A DNA stretch of 64,000 nucleotides from Schizochytrium sp. TIO01 (taxonomy: Eukaryota; Protista; Bigyra: Labyrinthulomycetes): contig SMSO01000032.1 of NCBI GenBank assembly GCA_004764695.1, positions 2,790,001 through 2,854,000 on the forward strand, given 5' to 3'. Under the pieces are notes generated by a model. It was not told the DNA's origin. It did no database searches and worked only from the letters and a program-made list of their open reading frames with translations. The first letter of the stretch is position 1. The number at the start of each line of letters is the position of its first letter. The translations under genes were made by a program, and so were the position numbers. This document shows, one piece after another, positions 3,450 through 53,145 of the stretch.

Positions 3450-4640
3450 CCACAGACTGCTTATGATATTCCTATAGATTAGTACAATGCAGAGCTCGCC
3501 AGGAGTTGCAGAAGCCTCAGAATAGGATCTCTTGGAAATGGACAGTCACCCAGTCTGATTTGGTCGTAGTAGAAAGCCCATTAATTGTACAACTCCTTAG
3601 CTGGGCAGTGGGTAAAGCATCCTTGGGCCTCAAGCTTCGTCTAAACTCCAACGACGTTTATTTAACTTAGCAATGATATTGAATAGGGTTGCGAGAAAAC
3701 CTCTAAGATTAACAACTGGAGGTCTGAGCAATTTAAATGGCAATTAGCTTGTCCCCGGAATCCATGGACTGAGCCGAGTTCTCCCAAGTTGAAGAATGGG
3801 AAATGAGCTGTACGACAAAGATTGCAGGCTTCATAATCAAATCGCTCTCAAAAGCACGCTTCGTGATTTTGGCCAGGCAACAACGTCAACATTAAGAAGC
3901 AACATGCGACAGAGCTATGGCTAGACAAAGGTGGCTATAAGAATGTGTTTGATATCAGTCATGCAGCAGCTCTTTGGCAAAAGAGGAATGATATGTTGTA
4001 TTATGAATAAATAAATATGGCAAAGATTAAGTCAAGTTTCCTACTAGATCGTGTATCTATATTCTCTGACCCGGATTGGTGTCATATATTATATTTACTT
4101 GGGTCAGCTGATTTGTTGACTCATTACCAAATGAATGGCCGCAATTGAAAGCTACTGGCCTGGAACCCTAGTCCCAAATGATTGTAAGTAACTTTCATAG
4201 CTAGCACAAAACAGATACATCAAAGGAAGTGGGCATTAGTATGTTGAATATCTATCAGCGTGACACTGATAATTAATGTTTTATAGATGCTGAAGCATCC
4301 AAGGTGTTGTGTACCTACCGGCCTCGTTGCCAACTCAATATCTGACTACTTACTTCTTTTGTCTTTATAAAAGAAGTTGGGGAGATCTCGCCTGCGACGC
4401 AACAAGCTCTGAAACATATTCAGGTATAAGTACGTCTATTTGTGTCAATCTTATCTTGTATAGCTATGTAAAGATGCTCTCTGTGTTTCTTCGTATGTGC
4501 AATTGATGTTCAAGGGTACAAGGAATGGAAGCTAGCTAGCTATAGACCTCAGGATATACTTGGGGGACAAGAAAGATGGAAGTTTCCAAAGCCCACAGCA
4601 TATAGATGATCAATGTCCCCATCGGTACTGTGCAAAAAGG
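3450..4640 (-). pseudogene. Kinase relic (I-X)
   Basis: AVGFGNF near 4580-4600 (I); YIAIQDKID (II); SDLIMKPAIFVV and AQSMDSG at about 3750-3850 (VIb, VII); GFLAT...RWSLD (VIII-IX); YDQIRLGDCPFP at about 3530-3570 (X). Confidence 0.55.
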
Positions 4641-10605: not shown

Positions 10606-10748
<143 letters not shown>

Positions 10749-11189
10749 GCTAAGCAGGGAGGGAAAGTGGCTGGTGCTCTGGGTTTGGGCACGAGGGAAG
10801 AAAGACCTTGCGTGACGGCCAGCTGCGGGTGGATAGCTGCGGGGAACTGCGGCGCTGAGGTATGGGCGGGGCCAGGAGTCATCGAGGTGCTGCGGGGGTA
10901 GCGGGAGGGGTTAGTCCGGCGAGGTGAGTGAAAGACACGGAGAGACTACGTCTATTAAATTCGGTTTTGCTTTTTAAAGTTGAGTTTTAAGCATGTTTTA
11001 TTTTAATAAATAAAAACAAATACTGACAATATGGAGCGTATGTATGTATGTATGTTTGTGTATGTGTTATGTATGTTCATGCAATATGTTCATGAAATGG
11101 TGGAGCCGCTGAGTTCTGGGATTGATTGGTCTGCCGCTCTCTAGGGTTCTTGCCTGGAAAGCTGAGTCAAGCTCTGCGAATTGATGGGC

Positions 11190-11670
11190 AATCAATCGCT
11201 CGCTCTCGACGGGGGCTCTCGTGATGTGGATTGGCTGCCACGCCTTGGAATGTGCGAAGTTTTGGCTATGATGCGTTGTGCATTATTATTTATTACGCGC
11301 CCCGGCAGAGGAGACATGCGCGTAACAGCGGTGGGACTGCACTGCTTCAGTTCGCATCGTTGACGAGCAAAGACGATTGCGACTGATTGTCTGTGAATGA
11401 ACAAATGGACAGCTACGTGCTTGGTCCACGAAAGGAATGGGATTCTGCTCATTAAAAAATTGACGAGGTTGGCCTTCACGCAGCATTTCTGTAGTGGATG
11501 CGGACCTTGGGTATGGCATAAACGAAGGACCCAAGCTGTGCAAGCTTGCAAGACGATTATACTCGCACCATAATAACATATGCACGGAGCTATCTGTGCA
11601 GGTATGCGGTGTCGGCGTCTCGAGTGAGCAGCAAAGGATTTCAAGAGATCAAGCTGTACTTCCAAAGGAG
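11190..11670 (-). pseudogene. Kinase relic, TKL-like (III-VII)
   Basis: 157-aa ORF: EVQLDLLKSFAAH (III-IV), CYYGAS, ANLVNFLMSRIPFLSWTKHV (GNLxxFL...LSW), FIHRQ (IHRD), IIAKTSH (AKIxD). Confidence 0.65.
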
Positions 11671-12324
11671 GCCTCGAAAGGTATCCCTTAAGTCCAGCTC
11701 AGCCCTAGATTCCCCTCACCAGCGAAACGCATCTGTATCAAAAGGGATCAACCTTACAGCGATACCAATGGAGGGACCACCTAAAAACGGAACAAAAAAA
11801 GGAACCACGAAAGACAGCAAAGGAGGATGGAGCAGTATCATTGACAGCAGTATCATTGACAAGTGCTAGAGCAGATACAAGTATTGAGAAGCTTCGTTCC
11901 AGCGGTCTATAGCCCTTACCTTATACGCCTGCACTATATTGACATGCAAGAATCTCTTCATAAAAACATCGATGTATACTGGGACAAGTGGTATGCCATG
12001 GATGTAATGATACAAAATCTAAATTCGGTATTGTCAAGGAGGCCATGTTGTACAAAACAAGTGACCCATGGTACTTGCAAGAACTCATCGCGCACATCCA
12101 GGCGGTTGGATCTGAATCGTCATGCTTAGTGACCTGCTCGAGCAAATCGAAAGGTATGAAGAGCGGTAGGCAGAGAGTCTCGATCCTGCTCACGACCTGA
12201 CATGGACCGAGAAAATTGCTAAAGAGCGCGACGAGGTCACAGGATATTGGCTCAGTAGCAATCAATGTCCAGCGTTGTTCAGAAAATTAGAATACCATCC
12301 ACTAAGACCTTATCACTGCGTTAT

Positions 12325-12720
12325 TCAAGTACCTACATACTGTAGAGGAGGTAAAGGATGAGTACACTGCGGTTTCAAGGCAGATAATGGTTGGATTACC
12401 TGTACCAAGAATGGAATCTGGGAAGCAGTGACCTTTTTCTTTATTATCAACGAGGCCAAAGACACGGCCCGTAATTTGCACCAACCAAAGCACACCTTGG
12501 TTGACCCAGAGAATTGTCCCAGCTCTCTTAATGAAGCCACTGAAGGCGCTATATATTTGCTAGGCACGCAGGACTCCACCCACCCATTAATCCGCGTTGA
12601 TCTGATATGTTTTAAATATAATATGTATGTTAATGTTACTTGGTTTTTACATTTTATCGAGCAATTGGGAGTAGAAGCTCGTCGTGGTTGTTCAAATAGT
12701 GCACCAGGCACTACATTCCC
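12325..12720 (-). pseudogene. Kinase relic (VIb-IX)
   Basis: RRASTPNCSI...QVTLTY (VIb-VII), CVPSKYIAPSV (VIII), VCFGW...VTASQIPF (IX). Confidence 0.55.
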
Positions 12721-12783
12721 CTATCCGTGGAAAGCTTGTGAGGACTGAAGCTTTCTGCCCCGAGTAGCTGCTTTTTTATTTGT

Positions 12784-14230
12784 CTAACTTTATTCGTAAA
12801 TAATTGAAAATTATCGTGAGTCCACCCACTCTTAAGCGAGACGCTCATGCGAGCAATCACCAAACGAATGTTACCAATTACGTAACCTTTTGTGTTATAG
12901 ATACGATCTACGGAGACATAGAACGGGTGCTTCGTTTGGAAAACGAGTGGAGGTTAGTGAAGTAGCATTTCCCACCTTAGTTCTCAAGCATCTCCAAGAT
13001 AAGAGCTGGTGTGATCTCGCAGTTTTCGTGAACTTCTCCTCTCCGATGAGAATTAGTAGTCCGTTGGCGATTGCGAATCTGGCACTTGCAAGAATATATA
13101 CAGTAGGTGTGAGTGAGAGACCTTCTTGTAAGACCCCCGTTTATCCCATGGATAATTTACGGGCTGAACAAAGAGCATCCGTAAGGTAAGCTTACGGTTC
13201 CAATTGAAGACGCCACCGATGTTCAGAACCTGATAGATTGCCACAACAAGCCCTACAGCACAGTAGCCCTTATCACGATTGAGTCGCTCCATGCTAGGGA
13301 TATATGGGCCATCTCTCGCTATCATCATGTTAAAACAACATCGGTAGTCTTGATTTTCAATGACTTTGGCCAGGTTGCTGAGAATGCAGTCTCGATTGGT
13401 CCTAGAGGCCTTGGTTGTTTTACCCAACCTAAAACTAGCCTCATCACTGCTGTAATTGCTTTCAGTTTCTTCTGTGGAAACAACAGAAGAAGAACAAGAA
13501 GAATCGCATGATAAGTTGTCACTAAGACGACTTCTCAGTTCAATGTACGCTGCGCCGTACAAGTGACAGTGGATTGCCTCCCCCTGCTTTGGCAGCAACG
13601 CATGCATTGCATTTCTTCTTGACACCAGTTTTGTGACTAATTAATTCTAAAATGATAGATATAAAGATGCTGCTGACGGGCAGTGCGCAGAAGATACGCG
13701 AATCAAGCCCCATCATTGCAAGCAATTGAATGCTGTTTGTGTTTCCACTTTTCAGGAGTCGCGTGAGGCAAGAGCTAATTGCAAAGACATCAAAGCCCTT
13801 AGAAAAGTTTCCATTACGTGACCCTTTGCGTAGTCTTGCTTTCAGCTCTGCACTGAAGACGAATGCTGAACGTGTTTTCTTGCGTTTTTAATACTTACAG
13901 TGGGTGCAAGTTGAACATTTTGTAAGAAATCCTGTACCTTAGTTCATTGCGTTTTTTACGGTACAGTGGATGATAAATGTTGCGGTACTTTCCCGTGCGT
14001 ACGATCTTGAAGATACGATCCTAGTCTTCTTTCTCAGGCACATATAGTTCTTCATGGGCAGTGGTTTTCATTTGTAGTATGACGCCAATGCAGAAATTAG
14101 TTTGGGGGGGCACGATTGGTAAGCGTTTAGTAGAGGAGGATGTGGAGTGCTTTGTTTGCACTGGCCTAATGGGTTTTCTACTACACCTCAAAGCAAACAA
14201 CTTTACAAACAATATTCGAACTTGATTTTG
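12784..14230 (-). pseudogene. Frameshifted virus/phage-type endonuclease-like gene with CxxC ribbons and two tandem Q-x-x-[RK]-C ... S-x-[DE]-R-x4-K-G-Y domains
   Basis: CxxC motifs KCSTC (~13910) and KCNAC (~13610). Domain 1: LAKVIENQDYRCC...PSMERLNRDKGY...VLN...W. Domain 2: CEITPALILEMLEN*GGKCYFTNL, a 1-nt frameshift, then FQTKHPFYVSVDRIYNTKGYVIGNIRLV...GWT. Stop at 12784-12786. The 5' limit is approximate. Confidence 0.7.
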
Positions 14231-14403: not shown

Positions 14404-14668
14404 CCCCATCTTCATCTTCATCTTCATCTTCATCTTCATCTTCATCTTCATCTTCATCTTCATCTTCATCTCCATCTCCATCTTCATCTTCGTCTTCATC
14501 TTAATTTTCATCTTCATCTTCATCTTCATCTTATCTTTATCTTCATCTTATTTTTATTCTTATCTTTATCCTTAACTTTATCCTTAACTTCGTTTATCCT
14601 TAACTTCGCATTCGCATTCGCATTCGCATTCGCATTCGCATTCGCATTCGCATTCGCATTCGCATTCG
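14404..14668. repeat. (CATCTT)n hexamer array grading into (TTCGCA)n
   Basis: Direct reading; degenerate in the middle. Confidence 0.9.
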
Positions 14669-14699
14669 CGCTTTCGTAATGGAAGCTTCTGTGTCATGA

Positions 14700-15520
14700 T
14701 GGAAAATCCTGTTTCTCTTTTTTTAGAACTTTTAGTCCGTCTTCAATTTGCTAGAGAAAGTTCTCTATCTCATCGAAGCGGCAGCCATTGCCGAAACGTA
14801 CGCACTCAACATCTGATTACTATGCTACTATTCATTCACGACCCATATAATACTCTGGACTGCATGTCTTTAAACTCAGTTTTGGTTCTGCGTGCAGAAG
14901 ATGTTTGCTTCTAGTGTCAACAAGTATATAAGCGGAGTTAAATGAGATCCTTTGCATTATAATACACGTTTTAGGTCAGTGGTTGGTTTTGGTCATGGCC
15001 TCCAGTCAAATGGTTGAATTTTCTCGCATGCAATTGCTTACATGAAAGACAATTTGGCCAGCTAAAGGGTAGGGAATTTCGGTTGCCCAAGTTTTAAGCT
15101 GGATGGAATTCAGGGAGAGCATGTATTGGTACAATGCATCATGTTATACCTGCCGCAAACGTAAACACGCTATGAAACGCAACACACCCTAGAATATCTC
15201 TGAATGGCGCATCCAACCAGTTTGATTCAATTTTTGTTGTTACAAAGCAAGCTCACTTTAATGCATCTCGAGAAATGATCTCTTATCACTAGGCTGCATC
15301 AACAAAGATAGGACCCATTCATTTGGAGAGCGAAGACATTGATCCCTCGATTGCCAACATGGTGAAGGTGGAACAAGAACCTCATGAGCAGGCTTGAAAT
15401 TTGCCAAAGGGGAGACTCACCGGCAGAGACAAAATTTGCAAGTAGGATCAAACGTGACACGCAATTGCAGAGCTTTAGACTGAAAGAAGATCTAGTGGTT
15501 TCGAGATCTACAGAACCATG
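14700..15520 (+). pseudogene. Kinase relic (III-XI), catalytic loop apparently deleted
   Basis: EAAAIAETYALNI*LL (III-IV), TLDCMSLNSV (V), AIAYMK...RVGNFGC (VIa, VII), IGTMHHVIP (VIII), ERRSSGFEI (XI). Confidence 0.5.
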
Positions 15521-15599
15521 AAAGGAAATAGAGCTTCCCCGTCCCTTACAAGCTTCGATTACCTTTTAGAATCCAATTATCCTATAACTAGCCTAGCAT

Positions 15600-15950
15600 A
15601 GCGAATTCTCACCGCACGTGATGAATGAATGTCACAATCCAAAGAGAGTTGGTAAGTTCCTGCAACAGGGCTCCGCCAATCTAAGAACCTTCGCTGTGTC
15701 TGAAAAGAAGGCCAGAGTTTCATCATAGGTACCTATGTACGAGTACCTACTAGCATTGTAATGCCAGGTACCAATCACTCACTCACTCCTATGATAGATA
15801 GGGCGATCTGCGCAACGCAAATCAGAAAGTGAAACCCTTAGTAAGAGGTGTAACCGTCGGCACGTAAGGCAATGCACGCACGCGACCAGAAAAGCGAGCA
15901 AAAGCACGGTCTATCGCTCGGGCCGACTTACCTTGCTTTGGCTTTTCTGC
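15600..15950 (-). pseudogene. Kinase N-lobe relic
   Basis: IDRAFARFSGRVRA (I-like), then FFSDTAKVLRL...RNLPTLFG (III-IV-like). Confidence 0.35.
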
Positions 15951-31333: not shown

Positions 31334-33967
31334 TTAAAGTACAGTAAGCAATCCTTGGGAACCTGAATTGGCACTATCACATGAATCTCTAGAAGAAGAG
31401 GAAGAAAATGTAGATAAACGTGGATCCCTAGTATCCGCTGAAGACGTGTGCGATATAGGCAGTCGAGAATATGCGTTCGAACTCGTCAATGATGGAAAAT
31501 GCACATCGAGGAGTCTACGACGAGAACGTGGGCTATAAAATGCGTCGCTATTACCATCGGAATTATCATCACCAAACATTATGTCCATTTCAGTACGGGT
31601 ATCATCATTAAAGCTACAATGACTACCTTCCGAAGTAGGTATCAACATGCTTGTAGCATCAGCAGGGGCATATGCAAACCTTTTGTGCAGTTCACTATTG
31701 CGATGTTCTTTGAATGGAACAGAATCAGGCGTTCCGCAAAAGCAAAGTAAAATGAAAAGAGCCAAACCACACAGTGCAGTTGCAACACATGATACGATGG
31801 CGAATGTGTGTGCTGGGCCGAAACTCAAACACAACTGGTTATCTATGCACTCTGCATTGAGACCCTCCAGAAACGAATTCGAAGGGGGTGCAGCGCCTAG
31901 CACGGTTGACTGCTCAGTATTGACAATGGCAAGCTGCATAAGTCGAGTTTGAGTCAGAAACACCAAGGCAAGGGTTTTGAAGATTGCAGCAAGAACTACT
32001 ACAAACGAGGTCATCATCAGAGAGAGTCTTGTCTTACGAAAAACAGTGCACACAAGCATGATGCAACCTAAAAAACTCAGAAATGAACCGAATATCCAAA
32101 AGGCCTGAGAGAAAGCAAATTTGGGGTCGTGCTGATTCTTCATTTCAAGTTGGTCAGAGCATTCGTTCTTAAGATCATCGAGAGAGCGAATGTCTGACCC
32201 ATAATAAGCACTAGCGATGTCCATGGAGTTCTCCAACGATACGCAGGCGGTCTTATTAAAGTACTGGAGCTCCTCACAGGGTTCGATTATCCGCAACAAC
32301 AGGATATTTGCATCGCTTTCTCCGCTCATACTGACAAGGTAATGACGCAAAGTGCAACTACTACGCATGGAATTCATACAGAGCCTCTGTGATTCCAAAG
32401 GATTTGAGCCGCGCTGGCATGTAGAACCTGTGAAACCTACAAGATCGCGGATTTCATCGTAAGTGAACTTATGGCAAAGAGGAAAGGGGTCATCCAGAGA
32501 ATGTGGCCATTTCGACTCTGACAAGTTTCCAATAAAAGCGTCAATACACTCCTCAAATGATAGCGTCCCTTCGCAGTTTTCATGAAAGAGGAAACTCTCT
32601 ACAAAAGAAGCCTCTGACTGAAAGTATCGTTGCGCACCACACAATGAACCGATAAAAACACGATTGGCTATTAAAGCAATATCATCAGGAGAAACGTCAC
32701 ATTCAGCTGAATCGCACCTGGAATTTTCTAGGCTTTTATTAGCCTTTGCAGAGGAAAATTTCCAACGCTCAGGAGTCGTGCACCAAGAAGAAGGCTCACC
32801 ATTGAAGTTGGAGTCAAAGAGATGTACTACTTCATCAAGTTTTTCATCAATGAAATCAGATATTGGGTATGCATACCCCTTTTGAATTGAAAATAACACC
32901 GCTGCAAGAGGACACTTGTCACTGGCCTGTTTATGTGTTTGCAGAAGACTTGCGGATCGAAAGGCCAAACACAGGGGGTGATCGCGACTCGACGCATATA
33001 CAGTGTTTTGAAGAGGGGTAACCTTTGAAATTGTTGCAAGAGATAGCGCACTTACACACTCGATATACGAAGTGAGAAAGTTGTGGTCTGTAGTTTCCAT
33101 CGCTAAACGAAAGATTTCTTGGTCAGAAACGCTGGAAGTCACAGTAAATGTGAATTGGATTGCAATGTTGAAGTACAATTGCTTTGTGTAGTCCTGTATT
33201 TGCTTTATCGCAACTGAGCATGCAACTGGATCATAGTGTTGTTTGCATACGACACCTTCAGAAGCTAGTTTAGTGAGCTTGGCACTCCGCAATACCACGT
33301 ATGCAAGTTGACCACGAACATCTTCCTCTCCGATAGGAGGTGAGCCATCTATTATCGTGAGCAAACCTTTGAGCGTAACCCGTGAGATGTGCATGACGTA
33401 CATCCAAAGAATGCGAATCAAGTTTCCAGTGTAAATATCCTGCATGTTTTTGAGCAGCTGAGATTGATAGAGTTCATACTCCTTTTTAAGAAGATGTTCG
33501 AGTGAATCTACAGCTTGAGAGGGTCTAGGATCTCTTAGCATTGCGGATGCAATGTCATGTGTCCACAACACCTGACACCTTGATGGAGAAGCACTTGCAA
33601 TCTCTGCTGACCGTCCTAACAACGCCCCATTTGAGAGGTCCCATGCAGATTTTGAACCAAATGCCTCAGCGCTAGCTATCTTCATGGGCTGGAGATCATC
33701 AAAAACTGTCGGTAGTGCAACACGATCTGGTTCTAGTTCCGTGATATTAGAAGAATTTCCTTGTGGAATTTGAGTGTCAGACGCCAAACACGTTGAGGCG
33801 ATTTCCGTTGTAAACAGACCGACCATGACAAATGGCCTTGCCGCGTCTGGGCAGTGTGGAGATAGCGTGAGGTAAAACCAGGACCCAGCGACAGCGTCAT
33901 AGACGCCTAGAGCAAGCCCAAACCAAATTAAGAAGCCAAGCAGGGCACCTGGACAAACCTGTCTCAT
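31334..33967 (-). CDS. Four-TM membrane protein with very large Cys-rich first loop (claudin/PMP22-like topology), paralog A
   Basis: 877-aa ORF: N-terminal TM, GLF motif, ~600-aa Cys-rich loop, three C-terminal TMs, Ser-rich tail. Clear paralogy with 35777..38458. Confidence 0.8.
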   Translation of the reverse strand: MRQVCPGALLGFLIWFGLALGVYDAVAGSWFYLTLSPHCPDAARPFVMVGLFTTEIASTCLASDTQIPQGNSSNITELEPDRVALPTVFDDLQPMKIASAEAFGSKSAWDLSNGALLGRSAEIASASPSRCQVLWTHDIASAMLRDPRPSQAVDSLEHLLKKEYELYQSQLLKNMQDIYTGNLIRILWMYVMHISRVTLKGLLTIIDGSPPIGEEDVRGQLAYVVLRSAKLTKLASEGVVCKQHYDPVACSVAIKQIQDYTKQLYFNIAIQFTFTVTSSVSDQEIFRLAMETTDHNFLTSYIECVSALSLATISKVTPLQNTVYASSRDHPLCLAFRSASLLQTHKQASDKCPLAAVLFSIQKGYAYPISDFIDEKLDEVVHLFDSNFNGEPSSWCTTPERWKFSSAKANKSLENSRCDSAECDVSPDDIALIANRVFIGSLCGAQRYFQSEASFVESFLFHENCEGTLSFEECIDAFIGNLSESKWPHSLDDPFPLCHKFTYDEIRDLVGFTGSTCQRGSNPLESQRLCMNSMRSSCTLRHYLVSMSGESDANILLLRIIEPCEELQYFNKTACVSLENSMDIASAYYGSDIRSLDDLKNECSDQLEMKNQHDPKFAFSQAFWIFGSFLSFLGCIMLVCTVFRKTRLSLMMTSFVVVLAAIFKTLALVFLTQTRLMQLAIVNTEQSTVLGAAPPSNSFLEGLNAECIDNQLCLSFGPAHTFAIVSCVATALCGLALFILLCFCGTPDSVPFKEHRNSELHKRFAYAPADATSMLIPTSEGSHCSFNDDTRTEMDIMFGDDNSDGNSDAFYSPRSRRRLLDVHFPSLTSSNAYSRLPISHTSSADTRDPRLSTFSSSSSRDSCDSANSGSQGLLTVL

Positions 33968-35776: not shown

Positions 35777-38458
35777 TCAAACAATTCCAAGCGTGTGGGT
35801 TGAGGGAATATGCGAACTCGCATTCGAGGTCGAAGAATCAGAAGTATTGTGTGTGCTGATTGCACGTAATGAAGTGGCATCCGTGCGTGTCAGTTCGCTC
35901 TCACGGACAGCAAGCTCCGCATTCGATGCTTGATTATGTGTCAATGCATGCCGAAATGAAGTTGTCGCCGCGTTGTTACCATCGCCAGAAGACGAGGTAC
36001 TCAACGAAGATTCAGAACGCTCTTCCTGAAGAGGCTGTTGTTCAACGCTTGCATTTAGGTGATCAGAAGCATAACTAAACTGGTAATACATAGAAGCTGC
36101 TTGGCGCTTCGCATGTTCATCAATGCGTCCCAGACTATTTTGTTTGGAGCAAATGAGGGCCAACAGAAGAAGGAAAAACCCCAAGCAAGTTCCAGCAATT
36201 GCACACCTGAGGATCACATGATCATAGCCTCGGTAAAAGCAAAGTTGGCCCTCCGTGCACCCATCATAATAGTCATACATCACTTCCAACGAAGTCGCGT
36301 TCTTTACAGAAGCTCGAGATTCTGCTAGGTTTTTGCGTTTGAGAATAGCTCGTTGCATATTGGACATATTAATGCAAACGAGGAGGCCAACATAGAAACC
36401 AAATGAGAAAAAGCCCAAGCACGGGGCAAGAATTAAAGAAACACATGATCCTCGAAGTAGCACGTCAAGAATAATCACACATGTAAGGAAGGATACAGAC
36501 AGCGCCAACGGTAGAAAAAAAATGCCCATATTGATGTAAGTGTCCACGGTAAAGTGAGTGCGCGAGTTGCTTCCACAGGTATTGACTAACGCATCTTCAT
36601 CAGAGAGAATCGAACCATAGAATGTCGAAGCAAGGTCAAGCGACTGGCGCAAGTCTAAGCAATCTGCTGTCGTGTAGATGTCTGAGTCTTTGCAAGGTGT
36701 CCAAAAGTATCTTTCGAGAACAGAAGCCGCAGAGGACTTGTCTCGTAAATCCAAATAATAGGTGAGTGTGCATTTGGACCAAAGGTCTTGAAGCCAGGTT
36801 CTTTCGGACCAGTAGGAGAGGTCACTAATTTTTTTGGTGGGGCTGTCTAGCGCTTCGGCAATGGAATTGGGCGCAGCATTTTTACAGAGAGAGAATGCAT
36901 TGTCAAAGTGCCCTGGCCAACTTGTGGTAGAACTTTTGTTGAAAAAACTTTTTCGGCAAGTCGTGAGAGTATCTGAGGAGGTACATTCTTCGCCCAGAAT
37001 AAACGAAGAACCTGCTTCGTGTGATGTAAGAAAAGAACGAGAACCGCACAAATGACTGTTGTAGGCATTTAGCATGTCGCTGACTGAAGAATTCGGTGCT
37101 GCAAGATTGCGACCTGTTTCCAAATACTCCGCTGAGACACTACTTTCTTCTGAGCAAGAAGGAGCGGTCTTGCCAAGGCTCACCACTTCACTTGACAAGG
37201 TTGAAAGCAGAGATGAAACTGTGGAACCCAGACTTGTGTTGTTTCGAATTGCAGTGTGTCCTACTAAAGATAAGATGCAGGCCCCACTGAGCTTGCTGCT
37301 AGAAGGACCAGTGACAAGCATATCGATCTTGTCAAAAGCGAGACACAACGGATGATCCTTTGAAGAGTTGTAAAACAATACGGCCAATGGTCCGGATGTA
37401 CTTCCATAGGAGGAAATGCTGTTAAGAGAGTTAGAGTATATTGCCATCGTGACAATGTCTTCGGATGAGGTTGAGATCTCTGCGGGTGCACTACTAGCTG
37501 TCGAATCAATGTCGAAGGCTGAACAAAGGGCAGATACAAAATTATCCAGGTATAGACCCTCAGCGAGTTCCTCGAGCTCTTCAAAGTGTTTCTCGCAATC
37601 GGAGTCGCCATCACAAACTTCTGACTCGCCGCTGTCTATCAATTGCACAGCCTTTGTAGCATAGTACGCTAGGTTGTACACAACATCATCATCATCATCG
37701 CCAGATGTCGCTGATACGCTGCTGGAGTCCGGTTGACTGCTACTGGAGAACTCATCAGCCCCCCCTCCACCAAGAATTCGGCCTGATTGGTGGCTGGTTG
37801 ATGAAGACGTCGACGTGGATGATGACTTGGAGGAGTCTGCCAGCATTGCTACGAGTGGGGTAACCGAGTTTGTCACAGTCTCTTGCATAACAAGAGTCCA
37901 AAGAAAGAGCATAGTGTGGTCATAAAACGCGTCTGTTTGTTCAATAAGAGATTCATAAGAGCTGGAAAGATTGGTATCCAAGAGTGAGTCAACAGAGTCA
38001 TAAGTTGACCACCAGGAATAAGAAAGGTCGCCATATTTCAAACCAAGTTCTTCCCCTTTTGCAGAAAGCCATGCATCCTCGCAAGCTTCTTGCGCCGTGC
38101 TATCGGTCGCCTTCCCTGCCATGCTTTTTAGCAAGATGAGGCTCAATGCATTAAAAGTTGCGTAATTCATAGTGCGAGGATCTGGCAAAAGCACAGTTGA
38201 GATGAGAGATCGCGAATAAGTCTCTGATAAGAAATCAAAGTTTGAAGTTCTTTCGTAGCCTTCGGGCATAGAGTTATTTAAGCATGTCGGGTCATATGTC
38301 GTACTGAAAAGTCCAATCTGTAGCAAGGGCGAATCATCTGTGCAGAGCGGCGGCAGTGTTACATAGCCATAGTTGCGTGTGGCAGTCTGTACAAGCCCAA
38401 GGACTAGGCCAAACCAAATAAAGAGGCCTAAAGCTCCACCAGCACAGGAGGGCTGCAT
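35777..38458 (-). CDS. Four-TM membrane protein with very large Cys-rich first loop, paralog B
   Basis: 893-aa ORF sharing IWFGL.LG, TL.P.C, SS.DHPLCLAF, LCG, WP...D..F.LC, CTL..YL and QLC with paralog A. Confidence 0.8.
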   Translation of the reverse strand: MQPSCAGGALGLFIWFGLVLGLVQTATRNYGYVTLPPLCTDDSPLLQIGLFSTTYDPTCLNNSMPEGYERTSNFDFLSETYSRSLISTVLLPDPRTMNYATFNALSLILLKSMAGKATDSTAQEACEDAWLSAKGEELGLKYGDLSYSWWSTYDSVDSLLDTNLSSSYESLIEQTDAFYDHTMLFLWTLVMQETVTNSVTPLVAMLADSSKSSSTSTSSSTSHQSGRILGGGGADEFSSSSQPDSSSVSATSGDDDDDVVYNLAYYATKAVQLIDSGESEVCDGDSDCEKHFEELEELAEGLYLDNFVSALCSAFDIDSTASSAPAEISTSSEDIVTMAIYSNSLNSISSYGSTSGPLAVLFYNSSKDHPLCLAFDKIDMLVTGPSSSKLSGACILSLVGHTAIRNNTSLGSTVSSLLSTLSSEVVSLGKTAPSCSEESSVSAEYLETGRNLAAPNSSVSDMLNAYNSHLCGSRSFLTSHEAGSSFILGEECTSSDTLTTCRKSFFNKSSTTSWPGHFDNAFSLCKNAAPNSIAEALDSPTKKISDLSYWSERTWLQDLWSKCTLTYYLDLRDKSSAASVLERYFWTPCKDSDIYTTADCLDLRQSLDLASTFYGSILSDEDALVNTCGSNSRTHFTVDTYINMGIFFLPLALSVSFLTCVIILDVLLRGSCVSLILAPCLGFFSFGFYVGLLVCINMSNMQRAILKRKNLAESRASVKNATSLEVMYDYYDGCTEGQLCFYRGYDHVILRCAIAGTCLGFFLLLLALICSKQNSLGRIDEHAKRQAASMYYQFSYASDHLNASVEQQPLQEERSESSLSTSSSGDGNNAATTSFRHALTHNQASNAELAVRESELTRTDATSLRAISTHNTSDSSTSNASSHIPSTHTLGIV

Positions 38459-45850: not shown

Positions 45851-48800
45851 ATGAGGTCCGCAAGGAGGCGGAGTGTAGGGCTTGTACTAGCACTTTTGAT
45901 CGCTGCAGTATCTAGCTCGGGCACTCAAGCTAGCGTGGATGTAGCAAGCCTCGCTCTGCCCGGCTTCAGCATTCTGGAGAATGCACGGCGCGTGGTGGCT
46001 GAGGCTGTCAGGGAAGTCACAGGATATAACATAAATGCTACACAAGGAAACCTCACCGATGACCAAGCAAGACGTCTGAACGGCATGGGCTGCAGCATTT
46101 GCACCATGCCCACGACATCGCCGCCCACCCCGGAGCCAACCCCGAAGCCTACCGATGATCAGCCCTCGCCAACACCAGAGCCAACACCAAAACCAACCGA
46201 TGATCAGCCCTCACCGACACCGGAACCGACACCCAAACCAACTGATGACAACCCGTCACCAACACCGGAGCCAACCCCAAAGCCAACTGATGACAACCCG
46301 TCACCAACACCGGAGCCAACCCCAAAGCCAACTGATGACAACCCGTCACCAACACCAGAACCGACACCCAAACCTACAAACGATAACACTTCTCCAACTC
46401 CTGAGCCAACATCTAAGCCAACTAAAGCCGACTCTACGGCAGAGCCCACCCCCAAACCTACGAAGGAGCCTACCTCTGGGTCGAGCCCAACTCCAGAGCC
46501 CACGGCAGAAACCACGCCGCGGCCAACGAAGTCACCTACTTCGGGGTCTAGTCCAACTCCCCAACCCACGGCTGAGGATACGCCTAAACCTACAAAGAAA
46601 CCCACAACTCAACCAAGCCCTACACCGGCACCAACAGCCGAAACTACACCACGTCCAACAAAGAAACCTACGAACCAAGCGAGCCCAACTTCGGCGCCTA
46701 CTGCTGAGACTACACCTCGGCCCACGAAAAATCCTACAAACCAAGCGAGTCCCACTTCTGCACCTACTGCCGAGGCCACACCAAAGCCCACGAAAAAGCC
46801 CACAGACCAGCCCAGTCCTACTTCGGCACCAACTGCCGAGGCCACACCAAAGCCCACGAAAAAACCCACAGACCAGCCCAGTCCTACTTCGGCGCCAACT
46901 GCCGAGGCCACACCAAAGCCCACGAAAAATCCCACAAACCAACCTAAGCCCACTGCAGAGCCCACCGCCAAGCCCACCGCAGAGCCTACCAAACAGCCTA
47001 CCCGAAAGACTTCGACATCCAAACCAACCTCCAAGCCGACCCGAGAACCCACGCAGAACCCGACTTCTCAACCTACAGTTCGAGTGACTTCCGAAGAAAT
47101 CACACCAAGCCCTTCATCTGCCCCGAGCATGGCACCAACAGTGATGCCTACGCTTCTGCCAACAAGTGCTCCTACTAATTCCACCTGCAACAACTCTATT
47201 TGGGATGATGATGAGGGTGAATCTGATATAGATTGTGGTGGTGATCTTTGCCCAGCTCGGTGCAGGGTTGGAGGTGGCTGCTACGTCGCGAGCGACTGTG
47301 ACGGAAACCTCGTTTGTACATTCACCGGAACTGTGCTCCGTGGTTCTTGTGAAGAAGAACCGGAACCCATTCCAGTAATCATCAAGTACCCAACATGTAC
47401 ACCTGGTACCCGTTGCCTGCACAACAATGCGTCTGCCAGTGTAGACCCGTACGGAGTTTGCGTACTGACACAAGACAACTCCACTAATGACAAGGTTGGT
47501 CACTGTATTCCGACGTTAGATACTTTGCCGCCTCCCGTTGTTGTGACGGATGGGGAGTGTTTGTACCCTTGGCGTTGGATTATGGCTACAGTCGTCTTAG
47601 GGTTATCCTTGATCATCTCTGCTTGTGCCAAGGACCAAATGCTCTTTGTACAAGCTCTTGATCTCGGTCACATTATTGCAAGTGGTGCCTTTTTGGTACT
47701 CCCCTCTGCACCTGTGTGCTACCTTGCATTCGCGACGGAAATGCGATGGAGTACACTTGTTTTGTTGCCTATTCCGCACCAGCTCGAGCCTGATGAGAGC
47801 TTGATGAATATTGATTCAGATGATGATACAAATGGTCGGAGACTTATATCTTTCAGTACTAATTTGACATGGGAAGACGTTGGTCTCTCTCGCATGACTC
47901 AAGCTGTGGGCTTGGACCACAAGTACCTTCTTTGTGGATTTCTCATTCTCATGTTGGCTGTCATGCTTATCTATGCGGTGGTGCAGATCGCTATGTCTGG
48001 TATTAACAAGTGGTACTACTGTATTCGCGAGTCAGCTGTTCGCATTCCATACATGCTTTCATACCCCGTAATTGCCTTGTCAGCCTACACGCTCTATGTT
48101 GTCTTCATTGCCAAAGACGCCGACTCGGTGGCCCTTCAGGCCGGCCTTGCATTTTTGGCATTAGCTGTGATGATCATTAGCGTTGCATGGATTGCGATTT
48201 GCTTTCGATACACGTGGCCATCTGATCCTGCAAAGACATTTCGTTCTCTTCACGTTGACTGGAATATGCGTCACAGATTATTCTGGTGTGTGCGTGTCCT
48301 AAACAATGCTTTCCGCGGATTCTTCATTGGTTTAGTCACGCAGCCTGAACCTGTACAAGCTGGCCTTTTCTTTGGTGTCGGCGTTCTTTACTTCGTTGTG
48401 TTGGCATGGGTGAAACCGTACGAGTACCGGTCTACCAACTGGATTGCACTTGTAGCCGCATTCCTATATGTGATTAACACCACTATCCCAATCATCTTTG
48501 CTATGGACCCAGCACCATTCTCGACGAGCACATTGGAAGTACTCGGCGAGGTTCAGGTCTGGCTCAACGTGGGATCGCTCTTTTTCATGCTGGCTATTAT
48601 CATGAGCCAAGTCCTTGGCAAGCGGGCTGAAAAGCGTCGTGCGGCCAAAGATCAAATCGCAGAGGAAGGCAAAATCGAGGACTCTGAAGCCGAGCTTACT
48701 AAACACATGTTTGTCCTTGACGGCAGTGATGCAGTCTCGCAGGATAATGATTTGGAATCTGGTGGGGCTTTTGCAAAAGCAAGTTCTCGTGCGCTTGCTA

Positions 48801-49042
48801 CCCTTCAACGCCATCGCCATTCCTCAGCCACCATCGTGGCAGCAACGCCGCAGGATGATAGCACTCAGCTCAGTAAGGATGACTCTGCGACATCAACAAA
48901 TGCTGATTCAGACTCGGACTCTGTTTGCTCGTCTCCGCTTCAGCTTGAACATATTCATACGGAACCGGAAGGGTTTGGACCTTCGCATGGGTCCAACGCG
49001 TCTCCTCGTGATCCCAAATCTACGCGACTCACTGTGCTTTAA
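45851..49042 (+). CDS. Cell-surface protein: signal peptide, Pro/Thr mucin-like repeats, Cys-rich ESDIDCGG domain, TRP/Flc-like multi-TM domain; paralog A
   Basis: 1063-aa ORF. Hydrophobic signal; 45-bp and 66-bp tandem repeats at about 46120-47060; CNN...ESDIDCGG..C...C..G..C....DC; P..Y..FA...W and multiple TMs with a KPY motif. Confidence 0.85.
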   Translation: MRSARRRSVGLVLALLIAAVSSSGTQASVDVASLALPGFSILENARRVVAEAVREVTGYNINATQGNLTDDQARRLNGMGCSICTMPTTSPPTPEPTPKPTDDQPSPTPEPTPKPTDDQPSPTPEPTPKPTDDNPSPTPEPTPKPTDDNPSPTPEPTPKPTDDNPSPTPEPTPKPTNDNTSPTPEPTSKPTKADSTAEPTPKPTKEPTSGSSPTPEPTAETTPRPTKSPTSGSSPTPQPTAEDTPKPTKKPTTQPSPTPAPTAETTPRPTKKPTNQASPTSAPTAETTPRPTKNPTNQASPTSAPTAEATPKPTKKPTDQPSPTSAPTAEATPKPTKKPTDQPSPTSAPTAEATPKPTKNPTNQPKPTAEPTAKPTAEPTKQPTRKTSTSKPTSKPTREPTQNPTSQPTVRVTSEEITPSPSSAPSMAPTVMPTLLPTSAPTNSTCNNSIWDDDEGESDIDCGGDLCPARCRVGGGCYVASDCDGNLVCTFTGTVLRGSCEEEPEPIPVIIKYPTCTPGTRCLHNNASASVDPYGVCVLTQDNSTNDKVGHCIPTLDTLPPPVVVTDGECLYPWRWIMATVVLGLSLIISACAKDQMLFVQALDLGHIIASGAFLVLPSAPVCYLAFATEMRWSTLVLLPIPHQLEPDESLMNIDSDDDTNGRRLISFSTNLTWEDVGLSRMTQAVGLDHKYLLCGFLILMLAVMLIYAVVQIAMSGINKWYYCIRESAVRIPYMLSYPVIALSAYTLYVVFIAKDADSVALQAGLAFLALAVMIISVAWIAICFRYTWPSDPAKTFRSLHVDWNMRHRLFWCVRVLNNAFRGFFIGLVTQPEPVQAGLFFGVGVLYFVVLAWVKPYEYRSTNWIALVAAFLYVINTTIPIIFAMDPAPFSTSTLEVLGEVQVWLNVGSLFFMLAIIMSQVLGKRAEKRRAAKDQIAEEGKIEDSEAELTKHMFVLDGSDAVSQDNDLESGGAFAKASSRALATLQRHRHSSATIVAATPQDDSTQLSKDDSATSTNADSDSDSVCSSPLQLEHIHTEPEGFGPSHGSNASPRDPKSTRLTVL

Positions 49043-50643: not shown

Positions 50644-53145
50644 ATGACTAGCATGCAGCGCTTCGTTTGTGTTAGCTTGGTGGTTTTTGCCTGGGCAGCG
50701 CTCTTCAGCATGGCTCAGACTCCAGTAGTCCCTGAGACTCCAAATCCAACTTTTGCAATTTCGCCAACTCAAGAAATTGTGACATTGAAGCCAACAGTTG
50801 GCAAGACGCCAGCACCTTCAAAAGAAACCCCGTCTCCAACAAAAGAGACCTCATCTCCAACAAAGGAAACTCCGTCGCCAACAAAGGAGACTCCATCGCC
50901 AACAATTCCGACATCTAAGCCAACAACCCCTGCTCCTAGCAAGGTTGAGGTAAATCCAACAAAAAAACCTACGAAGAAACCAACTCCAGAACCCACAGCA
51001 ATCGTACTGGCCCCAAGTACCTCTCCAATAACAGTAGCGACTGAGAGTCCATCAATAAGCTTGACCATATCTTTGAGCCCTACAATCGAAGAAGGGCCCA
51101 CTACAGCACCTACTTTTCCAGCAAAAGTTACACTGGCACCCACGAGCTTTCCAACTAGCAATGTTCCGAGCGATGCACCAACGCCTCTTCAACAAACAGA
51201 TGATACAGAGATTGGTCGCAATTCGTCATCTACAGAAACCCCGTCCCTTCCGCCAGAGTGCGTTAACGGAGAACAAGATGAGACGATAGGAGAGACCGAC
51301 ATCGACTGTGGCGGAAATTACTGTTCTCAACGATGCAGCACCTTGGAGCATTGCCTTGTTGGGAACGACTGCGGCGCGGGCGATGTTTGTGGATTCCAGG
51401 TTGGTTTAATGCTGGGCACGTGTTATCCAGAGCCCGCAAACTTAACACTTCAACCTCCGTGTGTGATAGGGTCAAGCTGTCAGCATACCTTCGCAAATGA
51501 GTCACTGTCAGAGAGCATTTGCGTTCTTCACTCCAACAACAATGTGTCAGGGTTTTGTATCTCATTGCCCAAACTGGCAGCTGTTAGCACAAGCACAGAG
51601 GAAGAAAGCACTACACGTTGGAGCACAGAAGCAATCTTGGCAAATGCATTGCTTGGTTTGTGCCTTCTTGTAACATTACTTATGCAGGACAGTTTCCTAG
51701 TCCTGCAAATACTAGAAGTCGGCCAACACTGTTGTGTCGGAGCTCTACTATGGCTCCCAAGCGCATCTTCATCATATACTGCCTTTGCAAGCACTCTTGC
51801 ATGGATAATGTTTATGGGATTAGACCCTAGTCCTAGTAACTCATCTGAATCTAATAGCACCCGGCGACTTGCCGATGTGGGTACTGAAGATGCAAATGGA
51901 ATTTCTACATTTGCTGATCTCGTTGGACTCAACAAGAGCCTTTTGCTCCCTGGATGTCTAATAGTTATGTGTATATGTTGGGTGGCGTATACTCTTGTGC
52001 AACTTTTATATCATGGCTTAACATCTTTGCGTGAGGTTTCTCAAGAGGCAGTAGTAAGACTTCCATACATATTTTCATATCCACTCATAACCATGTCGGC
52101 ATACACTTTCTATTCGCTTCTAGTAGTAGGAGATGTTGACAGTCGAGGTATGCAGGCAGGTTTAACTACTCTCGCAGCAGTGATCGTTGGGCTGAGTCTT
52201 GCTTGGACCTACTTTTGTACCCAAAACACCCTACAGGACGAATGTGGAGATAGTTTTCGATCTCTGATTTCAGATTGGAAACATGATATGCGATTGTTCT
52301 GGTGTGTACGCATTGTTAACAATTTTAGTAAAGGAATGTTTCTTGGCCTTCTCACTCGGCCCACTCCTTTGCAAGCGGTTTTATTTGTTACCATCAGTCT
52401 CACGTATCTTTCTCTTCTCGTTATTCTCCGACCATATAAATACGGATCTACAAACAAAATTGCCATCTTAGGTGGTGCACTATGTGCTGCAAACACAATT
52501 CTTCTCGTTCTTTTTGCAATAAGTCCAATGCCGTTTAGCACCGCAATGATGGAAACGCTCGGTGTTGTTCAAATGTATTTAACAATTGCATCGTTTGCCC
52601 TAATGTTCATGGTTGTTCTCAGTCAGTATTATCTTCGCGTACACATGGACGAACGTGAGCCATCATCCTCAACGGTAGAGATTGATAATACCAAAAAAGT
52701 CGACGTTGAATCACCATCTGGATTTCCTATTGATTTAGGTCTTGATTTGGTGAAGCTCGAAGATCTGGAGGCGTCTGAAATGAGTCATGGTGGCTCTTTC
52801 TCCACACGACCTTCTCTGGCTGACATTCTTAGAATTGGACGACAGCAGAGTTTCTTGTCATCACCAACTTCTTCTTCTTCTGAGGAGTCCTTTGAAGATG
52901 GGTGCGAAACGGAGCAAAGCAGAGCACAAGTTAATTATTATCACGAAGACGGATTGGCTCTTGAAAGTTGCCAGTCATCATTTTCAAACTATGGAAGCGA
53001 GACTGATGTTGGTCAAGTAGAAGAAATCGAAAGTAGTTGTGGTAGTGCCACTGATGGGTTTCTAAACGATGGCTTACTGTTGGCCACTCCAGATAGCTCA
53101 TTCACAGGGAGTCGCAACGACTATAGTTCCGAGGAAGATGCGTAG
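50644..53145 (+). CDS. Cell-surface PT-repeat/ETDIDCGG/TRP-like multi-TM protein; paralog B
   Basis: 833-aa ORF with KETPSPT repeats and CVNG...ETDIDCGG. Shares VR.PY..SYP.I..SAYT.Y, FRSL..DW....RLFWCVR..NN and PY.Y.STN with paralog A. Confidence 0.85.
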   Translation: MTSMQRFVCVSLVVFAWAALFSMAQTPVVPETPNPTFAISPTQEIVTLKPTVGKTPAPSKETPSPTKETSSPTKETPSPTKETPSPTIPTSKPTTPAPSKVEVNPTKKPTKKPTPEPTAIVLAPSTSPITVATESPSISLTISLSPTIEEGPTTAPTFPAKVTLAPTSFPTSNVPSDAPTPLQQTDDTEIGRNSSSTETPSLPPECVNGEQDETIGETDIDCGGNYCSQRCSTLEHCLVGNDCGAGDVCGFQVGLMLGTCYPEPANLTLQPPCVIGSSCQHTFANESLSESICVLHSNNNVSGFCISLPKLAAVSTSTEEESTTRWSTEAILANALLGLCLLVTLLMQDSFLVLQILEVGQHCCVGALLWLPSASSSYTAFASTLAWIMFMGLDPSPSNSSESNSTRRLADVGTEDANGISTFADLVGLNKSLLLPGCLIVMCICWVAYTLVQLLYHGLTSLREVSQEAVVRLPYIFSYPLITMSAYTFYSLLVVGDVDSRGMQAGLTTLAAVIVGLSLAWTYFCTQNTLQDECGDSFRSLISDWKHDMRLFWCVRIVNNFSKGMFLGLLTRPTPLQAVLFVTISLTYLSLLVILRPYKYGSTNKIAILGGALCAANTILLVLFAISPMPFSTAMMETLGVVQMYLTIASFALMFMVVLSQYYLRVHMDEREPSSSTVEIDNTKKVDVESPSGFPIDLGLDLVKLEDLEASEMSHGGSFSTRPSLADILRIGRQQSFLSSPTSSSSEESFEDGCETEQSRAQVNYYHEDGLALESCQSSFSNYGSETDVGQVEEIESSCGSATDGFLNDGLLLATPDSSFTGSRNDYSSEEDA

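Follow-up and report, generated by a model that had tools for sequence, protein, structure and literature searches.

A broken gene for a predicted two-module PacI-type endonuclease in a Schizochytrium chromosome, likely derived from a mirusvirus-type virus of thraustochytrids

The window, that is, the whole 64,000-nt stretch of Schizochytrium sp. TIO01 DNA that was analysed, is eukaryotic nuclear DNA, poor in introns and rich in microsatellites and housekeeping genes; among its genes are those for an MFS transporter, a 2,400-aa ubiquitin protease, RRP4, RPN6 and IQUB. On its minus strand, positions 13968–12687 hold a pseudogene of a zinc-ribbon, tandem His-Me finger nuclease of PacI-like type. 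This relic is embedded in the host chromosome, with host genes on both sides and one contig spanning the 3.6-kb stretch in two of eight runs. The features of the region are as follows.

12687–13968, minus strand: pseudogene, zinc-ribbon and tandem PacI-like His-Me finger endonuclease (P0003 alignment, HMM, hhalign)
13900–13968, minus strand: zinc ribbon 1, C2-C2 type; its first pair lacks one Cys and it holds the stop at 13941 (translation, HMM, alignment)
13600–13690, minus strand: zinc ribbon 2; its first pair is scrambled by the compensated frameshifts 13682/13648, its CNAC is intact (alignment)
13400–13540, minus strand: in-frame low-complexity Ser/Glu-rich insertion of ~35–45 codons, absent from intact relatives (P0003 alignment)
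13160–13397, minus strand: His-Me finger module 1, E-R...G-Y (alignment, hhalign)
12760–13087, minus strand: His-Me finger module 2, with the stop at 12979–12977 and a −1 shift near 12951 (alignment, P0003 comparison)
13053–13640, minus strand: residual 195-codon ORF, which follows the ancestral frame only over its middle third (module 1)
13969–14230, minus strand: possibly the gene's 5′ part in decayed form, its alignments not exceeding shuffles; 14057–14100 matches another locus
13582–13856, no strand assigned: paralogous matches on other contigs (13688–13742 in six of eight runs; 13582–13686 and 13824–13856 in one of eight)
14407–14669, no strand assigned: hexamer microsatellites, upstream boundary of the region
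10606–11069, no strand assigned: tetramer microsatellites, downstream boundary of the decayed region

A frameshift-aware alignment of window positions 13917–12687 with P0003, an intact 437-aa protein from a 3.2-kb JGI metagenome contig, yielded 144 identities over 363 positions and a score of 540, compared with 34–40 for shuffled sequences (n=8). Along the minus strand the gene is interrupted by five frameshifts (near 13682, 13648, 13575, 13088 and 12951, the first two forming a compensated pair) and four stop codons (13941, 13890, 12979 and 12713), the TAA at 12979–12977 standing opposite a conserved Gln. A subfamily HMM matched the pseudogene with i-E values of 3e-40 and 3e-8, reaching 13968, and found nothing below 0.3 in the rest of the 64,000-nt window; hhalign assigned module 1 of the window a probability of 98.7. 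The GC content of the pseudogene is 43.5%, against 48–52% in two adjacent genes. P0002, a record in the protein collection, is a strain allele of the residual 195-codon ORF.

The preliminary description had placed the gene at 12784–14230, with two CxxC ribbons and two module copies on the minus strand and two lesions in the second copy. Ribbons and modules are visible in the six-frame translation, and both lesions, the TAA over the conserved Gln and the −1 shift at about 12951, are real; however, they belong to a longer series of five shifts and four stops, accompanied by an insertion. The gene continues past 12784 to ~12687, and significant homology ends at ~13968. Upstream of that point, at 13970–14230, eight of nine relatives scored below their own shuffle maxima, and the best one reached 40 where its shuffles reached 39; a V-P-x-x-E-x-stop near 14040–14020 resembles the N-terminal motif of the family by eye only.

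Alignment of 13 intact relatives gave the domain order ribbon 1, helices, ribbon 2, module 1 and module 2, ribbon 1 being missing from P0011 and P0004. Intact chains measure 365–490 aa, and each of their modules has a single core Cys. The window retains the ribbon pairs CSTC (13917–13906) and CNAC (13611–13600). Its module 1 reads Q-D-Y-R-C at 13352–13338 and S-M-E-R-L at 13295, then K-G-Y, N and W; the loop Asn is gone, while the helix Asn and the N-[VI]-G-G..N-W signature are retained. At the Asp position of this module 13 of 14 relatives have Glu, followed by an N-V-G-G..N-[WF] signature. Module 2, whose invariants in intact relatives are Q..RC, S-x-D-R, G-Y, N, R-x-N and W, reads L-E-N-stop-G-G-K-C and then, in the next frame, S-V-D-R-I-Y-N-T-K-G-Y-V-I-G-N-I-R-L-V. 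It keeps D (12908), R (12905), Y (12884) and the loop Asn (12872). Its helix Asn, invariant in all 13 aligned intact relatives, is replaced by Ser at 12845. The core-helix Asn is a metal ligand in PacI-like His-Me fingers, and judged from the alignment the Ser would be a pseudogene lesion, in an inactive relic whose ancestor belonged to the PacI-like group 20.

Assignment to the His-Me/HNH-like nucleases, proposed in the preliminary description, agrees with family, profile and fold comparisons. The C-terminal piece of the window alone matched phrog_3322 (endonuclease, E 9e-8) and phrog_3118 (HNH, E 5e-7), and all 13 intact relatives matched PHROG HNH/endonuclease VII families. One of these 13 reached a Pfam His-Me family (E 0.09), and neither the window pieces nor P0003 had a Pfam or NCBIfam match. 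Profile comparison with PacI itself was weak (whole-sequence E 0.25), aligning the N-terminal ribbon and residues 87–108, within which D92-R93, G99-Y100 and N104 of PacI line up with the profile. On this pattern, D-R...G-Y...N with Tyr in place of His, the modules of the window are predicted to be of PacI type. PacI and mostly giant-virus proteins constitute His-Me group 20, in which a loop Tyr replaces His (PMC5714182).

Structural comparison relied on AF2 models of intact relatives, the module 2 model being that of P0092 (pLDDT 92.5) and not of the window sequence. Among 48,161 entries in a VIA search, PacI ranked first for this module (Z 6.7, 103 residues aligned, rmsd 5.7); this Z is under 8, and an axonemal chain came level with it at Z 6.6. 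The next ranks were taken by Tcd1 domains and HNH nucleases. With the whole chain, PacI came fourth (Z 6.3), after Tcd1 C-terminal domains and the axonemal chain. Foldseek against the PDB returned nothing at E<=0.001 for either model, HNH domains and PacI occupying weak ranks. Against BFVD, the whole P0003 model had its best matches among giant-virus proteins (E down to 9e-14; 65 at E<=0.001), which are 11–20% identical to P0003. As a separate observation, the C-terminal domain of Tcd1, a fungal tRNA t6A dehydratase, and the axonemal chain 8j07_c2 scored Z 5.5–7.2 against the PacI-like module, and the models suggest that both could be degenerate His-Me folds.

Searched against 1.84 billion proteins, a profile built from three window pieces recovered 104 at E<=1e-3, most of them with two matched stretches; a regular-expression search found at least two module motifs in 79 of 103 relatives, P0002 excluded. 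The nearest intact relative is ~40–45% identical to the relic. Phylogenetic analysis used the two-module region of 38 rows, with two of 25 outgroup candidates dropped because they were without two motifs and the window read through its breaks with X. The relic joined P0003 (98/87) and then P0005, which is Hondaea fermentalgiana GBG29797 (98/91), and together with 14 intact proteins it formed a 15-row clade supported at 100/99. Sampled distant relatives fall outside this clade, in a tree from which the BFVD proteins themselves are absent.

Searches elsewhere returned little. Word-seeded protein searches with the window pieces found nothing, and five of six IMG/VR scans were empty; the sole IMG/VR match, L001, was rejected as a chance match inside a phage tail gene. 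A GTDB scan with a single pattern, a weak probe, gave no relative, and an Atlas search of module 1 reached a best score of 0.85, a lead only. Phage relatives comprise 46 records, and in the 15 rows listed their matches span no more than 25% of P0003, at ~30% identity; tblastn of a 79-aa window piece against phages gave no match. No intact nuclear orthologue surfaced in the protein searches. Four distant tandem-module relatives with long N-terminal leaders (P0028, P0045, P0126 and P0128) come from eukaryote transcriptome records and ENA contigs of up to 2 Mb, and are possibly domesticated copies.

Genomic contexts of relatives were viral in all three cases examined: AurliV-2, a mirusvirus-like contig of Hondaea and a metagenomic large-virus contig. 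These contexts cover two of the 14 intact clade proteins, P0092 and the Hondaea P0005, the nearest relative P0003 not being among them. A motif search of the supplements of PMC12606086 located the AurliV-2 member, ORF 430 of this endogenous mirusvirus of Aurantiochytrium limacinum, as an intact 365-aa protein with the signatures of the clade. It lies between the genes for thymidylate synthase and the large subunit of ribonucleotide reductase (RNR), 55 bp before the latter. Compared by eye and not placed in the tree, it is identical to the window at 30 of 51 positions of the module 2 core, the same count as P0003, and on that comparison it appears too divergent to be the direct donor. Its row in supplementary file 4 of PMC12606086 names GBG29797 as top hit and carries the remark 'similar to Aurli_10460 scaffold 19'. 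None of three clade-specific motifs occurs in the AurliV-1 table, and the four rows there with generic S-x-D-R words are other proteins.

Accessions GBG2978x–2981x, which surround GBG29797, occur 13 times in the AurliV-1 table and 12 times in that of AurliV-2, whereas GBG2977x and GBG2982x do not occur in either; for the eight of 16 places listed, kinase, helicase and hypothetical proteins are among the top hits. GBG29797 thus likely sits on a mirusvirus-like contig, with membership read from consecutive accessions, a placement consistent with bioRxiv 2023.06.15.545109. The preliminary description had named two outcomes that would count against it, best homologues among conserved single-copy eukaryotic genes and a lack of similarity to the nuclease fold. 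Neither was observed: GBG29797, the one close homologue with a eukaryote label, has neighbours that are top hits of mirusvirus genes. In the P0005 gene model the intact tandem nuclease is fused to an extracellular protein with an Apple domain and to a third region; gene prediction probably merged three viral genes here.

P0092 is encoded on two near-identical JGI contigs, L002 and L003, counted here as one context. They are gene-dense and intronless and encode Rad52, dCMP deaminase, the RNR large subunit and an 805-aa, N-terminal-only RNA polymerase large subunit. The nearest Atlas cluster to the L002 polymerase consists of 79% viruses, labelled mostly Nucleocytoviricota, and L002 was not assigned to mirusviruses specifically; a split polymerase has been reported in thraustochytrid mirusviruses and also in pithoviruses. 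In L002 the P0092 gene stands 1.7 kb upstream of that for the RNR large subunit, so that linkage to RNR is seen in two independent contexts (AurliV-2 and L002), both of those with visible neighbours. In both, the clade member is free-standing between other genes and not nested in an intron.

Twenty-four six-frame read-throughs of the relic's own flanks gave no Pfam match at E<=0.05 and no transposase, integrase, polymerase or capsid gene. The L002 and L003 proteins match the nuclease only, and no decayed RNR or other L002 gene was found in the window flanks. The relic is therefore, as far as detectable, a single-gene viral fossil, with no endogenous-virus segment and no viral neighbour found in its flanks. 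A search around the relic likewise found no terminal repeats or target-site duplication.

The stretch was found in 20 of 24 listed runs from 11 studies, and eight of the 24, chosen for holding it, were compared. The gene is covered in all eight with substitutions up to ~1%, and the 12979 stop and 12951 shift are unchanged among the differences listed. Twelve nucleotides at 13323 are missing from the window allele and carried by seven of the eight runs, the contigs of the eighth breaking there. X9 has an additional stop at 12802 and a 2-nt insertion at 12898, and X4 and X15 have indels at 13649 and 13829. Of 28 SNPs listed in assignable frames, ten are synonymous and 18 are not (expected synonymous share 0.29, p 0.53; 14095 left out for its paralogue pieces and 13998 for its uncertain frame). 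The SNPs show no sign of selection, and the drift looks neutral.

Since the relic carries some nine breaks, is present in all eight runs, varies neutrally and is only ~40–45% identical to its nearest intact relative, it is old and dead, was likely acquired before the sampled strains diverged, and gives no support to the more recent insertion proposed earlier. Neither empty sites, in the eight runs chosen for holding the stretch, nor ends, at the locus, were found. Further copies do exist: at least two and perhaps three other look-alike loci occur in the same genomes, because the matching pieces, seen only as short stretches at ~85–90% identity, sit on different contigs. Other contigs match 14057–14100 in eight of eight runs. 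In two paralogues the 30-letter loose ends, read by hand, give a weak indication of a stop and a 1-nt gap. Two runs are tentatively taken to be RNA, and in them the contig matching 14057–14100 is ~9x as deep as the locus, a difference that cannot rank expression.

We interpret the relic as a neutrally drifting, broken gene for a predicted two-module PacI-type endonuclease that likely came from a mirusvirus-type virus of thraustochytrids, a reading in which we have good confidence. The viral half of the earlier virus- or phage-type label stands, all three contexts being viral; a phage donor is disfavoured because phage matches cover at most 25% of an intact relative, so that the likely source is a mirusvirus-type virus of protists. 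Had the same pseudogene instead come from a nucleocytovirus of thraustochytrids (a skiavirus or member of the 'Ariadnavirales') or from another giant virus, the label of the L002 polymerase cluster would be accounted for, as would the best structural matches of the wider family, which are proteins of Imitervirales, pithovirus, medusavirus and clandestinovirus. A PACI/HNH endonuclease is moreover described as a core skiavirus gene (bioRxiv 2026.07.28.741200; also 2026.08.29.747986), and skiaviruses, mirusviruses and hosts are described as swapping genes (bioRxiv 2026.07.28.741200). Yet the two named clade members lie in AurliV-2 and in a Hondaea region whose neighbours match AurliV genes, and the giant-virus proteins in BFVD are just 11–20% identical to P0003, which makes this donor rather improbable.

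We consider it highly improbable that the host domesticated the gene long ago as a small nuclear family whose function was lost later, leaving the viral origin remote. The other loci at ~85–90% identity would fit, as would the nuclear gene model similar to ORF 430 in the supplement (PMC12606086) and the distant family members in eukaryote transcriptome records and long ENA contigs; against it, protein searches gave no intact nuclear orthologue, the Hondaea copy looks viral and, weakly, the loose ends of two paralogues seem broken as well. Hardly credible, finally, is the idea that an autonomous mobile element, either a polinton-like virus or a transposon, inserted here and left the relic as its cargo or remnant: several copies per genome exist and PacI-like HNH domains are known in Polinton polymerases, but the locus is without terminal repeats or a duplicated target, its flanks are without transposase, integrase or polymerase, and those relatives that were examined stand as separate genes within the gene arrays of large viruses.

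Under the preferred mirusvirus-type origin, the zinc ribbons and long helices of the ancestral enzyme would have bound DNA. Module 2 (D-R...G-Y...N...R-x-N) would have bound Mg and cut with Tyr instead of His, as in PacI; module 1, with Glu for Asp, would have cut the second strand or only bound, and the two modules fused in one chain would mimic the PacI dimer. For the role in the virus, we lean by analogy towards a free-standing homing endonuclease beside nucleotide-metabolism genes, while a nuclease degrading host DNA for nucleotides is a possible but less probable function. Linkage to RNR and thymidylate synthase recalls free-standing phage homing endonucleases but also fits a nucleotide-scavenging nuclease, a role on which a review speculates for viral PacI homologues (PMC5714182); the clade motifs are found in AurliV-2 and not in the AurliV-1 table. 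Viral DNA most plausibly entered the chromosome when it was captured in the repair of double-strand breaks, inside the nucleus in which these viruses persist, and the other loci could reflect later duplication or repeated capture. A bolder version, which we regard as unlikely, is that mirusviruses possess a clade of free-standing, single-chain homing endonucleases of tandem PacI-like type, associated with the RNR/thymidylate synthase cluster, which in the host nucleus also break host DNA, so that the three or four decayed copies would be scars of nuclease-driven capture from several extinct mirusviruses; if true, such scars would provide a datable record of, and a mechanism for, transfer from mirusviruses to hosts.

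The closest known counterpart is AurliV-2 ORF 430, which shares a zinc ribbon, module 1 (E-R), module 2 (D-R) and the clade signatures and probably comes from the same host genus; in contrast to the relic it is intact, appears to have one ribbon and not two, and lies in a viral genome beside RNR. Its source table (PMC12606086) gives it no functional annotation. PacI (PDB 3ldy, 3m7k; PMC5714182) shares the D-R...G-Y...N core and the N-terminal C2-C2 ribbon, but has one module in 142 aa, whereas chains of 365–490 aa in the relic's family have two, and the copy in the window no longer functions. The repeated ribbon and module is shared with the tandem 'HNH/PACI' endonucleases of giant viruses (Fadolivirus, Klosneuvirus, Pithovirus, Medusavirus and skiaviruses). 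PacI is a homodimer, and T4 mobE sits between nrdA and nrdB. As an HNH-superfamily gene adjoining RNR or thymidylate synthase genes, mobE (PMC2790892) resembles the clade in placement, although it belongs to another HNH subgroup and phage matches to the family cover one module only. HNH-superfamily nucleases also occur in mirusvirus genomes as 'shintron' endonucleases (PMC12768974), which nest in spliceosomal introns of capsid genes, whereas the relic's clade is free-standing in two contexts.

Mirusviruses, skiaviruses and their thraustochytrid hosts have already been reported to exchange genes (bioRxiv 2026.07.28.741200), and exchange between host and mirusvirus is itself known; new are the identification of the family as a tandem PacI-like one and the observation that it is linked to genes of nucleotide metabolism. 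In the literature searched we found no prior annotation of a mirusvirus PacI-type HNH family, which the skiavirus/Ariadnavirales supplements may already place, and no report linking a free-standing homing endonuclease to RNR in giant viruses; matches on endogenous mirusvirus pseudogenes in thraustochytrids concerned Acanthamoeba only. The relic adds a mirusvirus-type chromosomal fossil outside the known integrated virus, one whose donor was neither AurliV-1 nor AurliV-2; this fits thraustochytrids having been infected repeatedly over a long time. An unlabelled mirusvirus gene clade can now be annotated as PacI-like nucleases of tandem Tyr type, of which the virus of a culturable host carries one intact copy, and a single-chain, two-module rare cutter may have value as a tool.

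Several other features of the window deserve mention. Kinase-like motifs were seen by eye at 15400–15850 (minus strand) and about 3700–4000 (plus strand), and kinases are encoded by the AurliV genomes and by the mirusvirus-like Hondaea contig, so these fragments could also be viral relics; in the flanks, kinase relics were unconfirmed by Pfam or by L002/L003 protein matches. Positions 11070–12750 comprise ~1.7 kb of complex, ORF-poor DNA kept across strains with strain-specific indels, and are possibly another decayed gene. On the plus strand at 12170–12748, a nearly open 192-codon frame without a family match overlaps the 3′ end of the relic; a motif had suggested an ATP-grasp relic there, which family searches did not support. 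Two adjacent minus-strand ORFs of 877 and 893 aa (31334–33967 and 35777–38458) have no clear Pfam family, and two adjacent large plus-strand ORFs (45851–49042 and 50644–53145) have weak TRP-like membrane domains, in one case behind Pro/Thr repeats.
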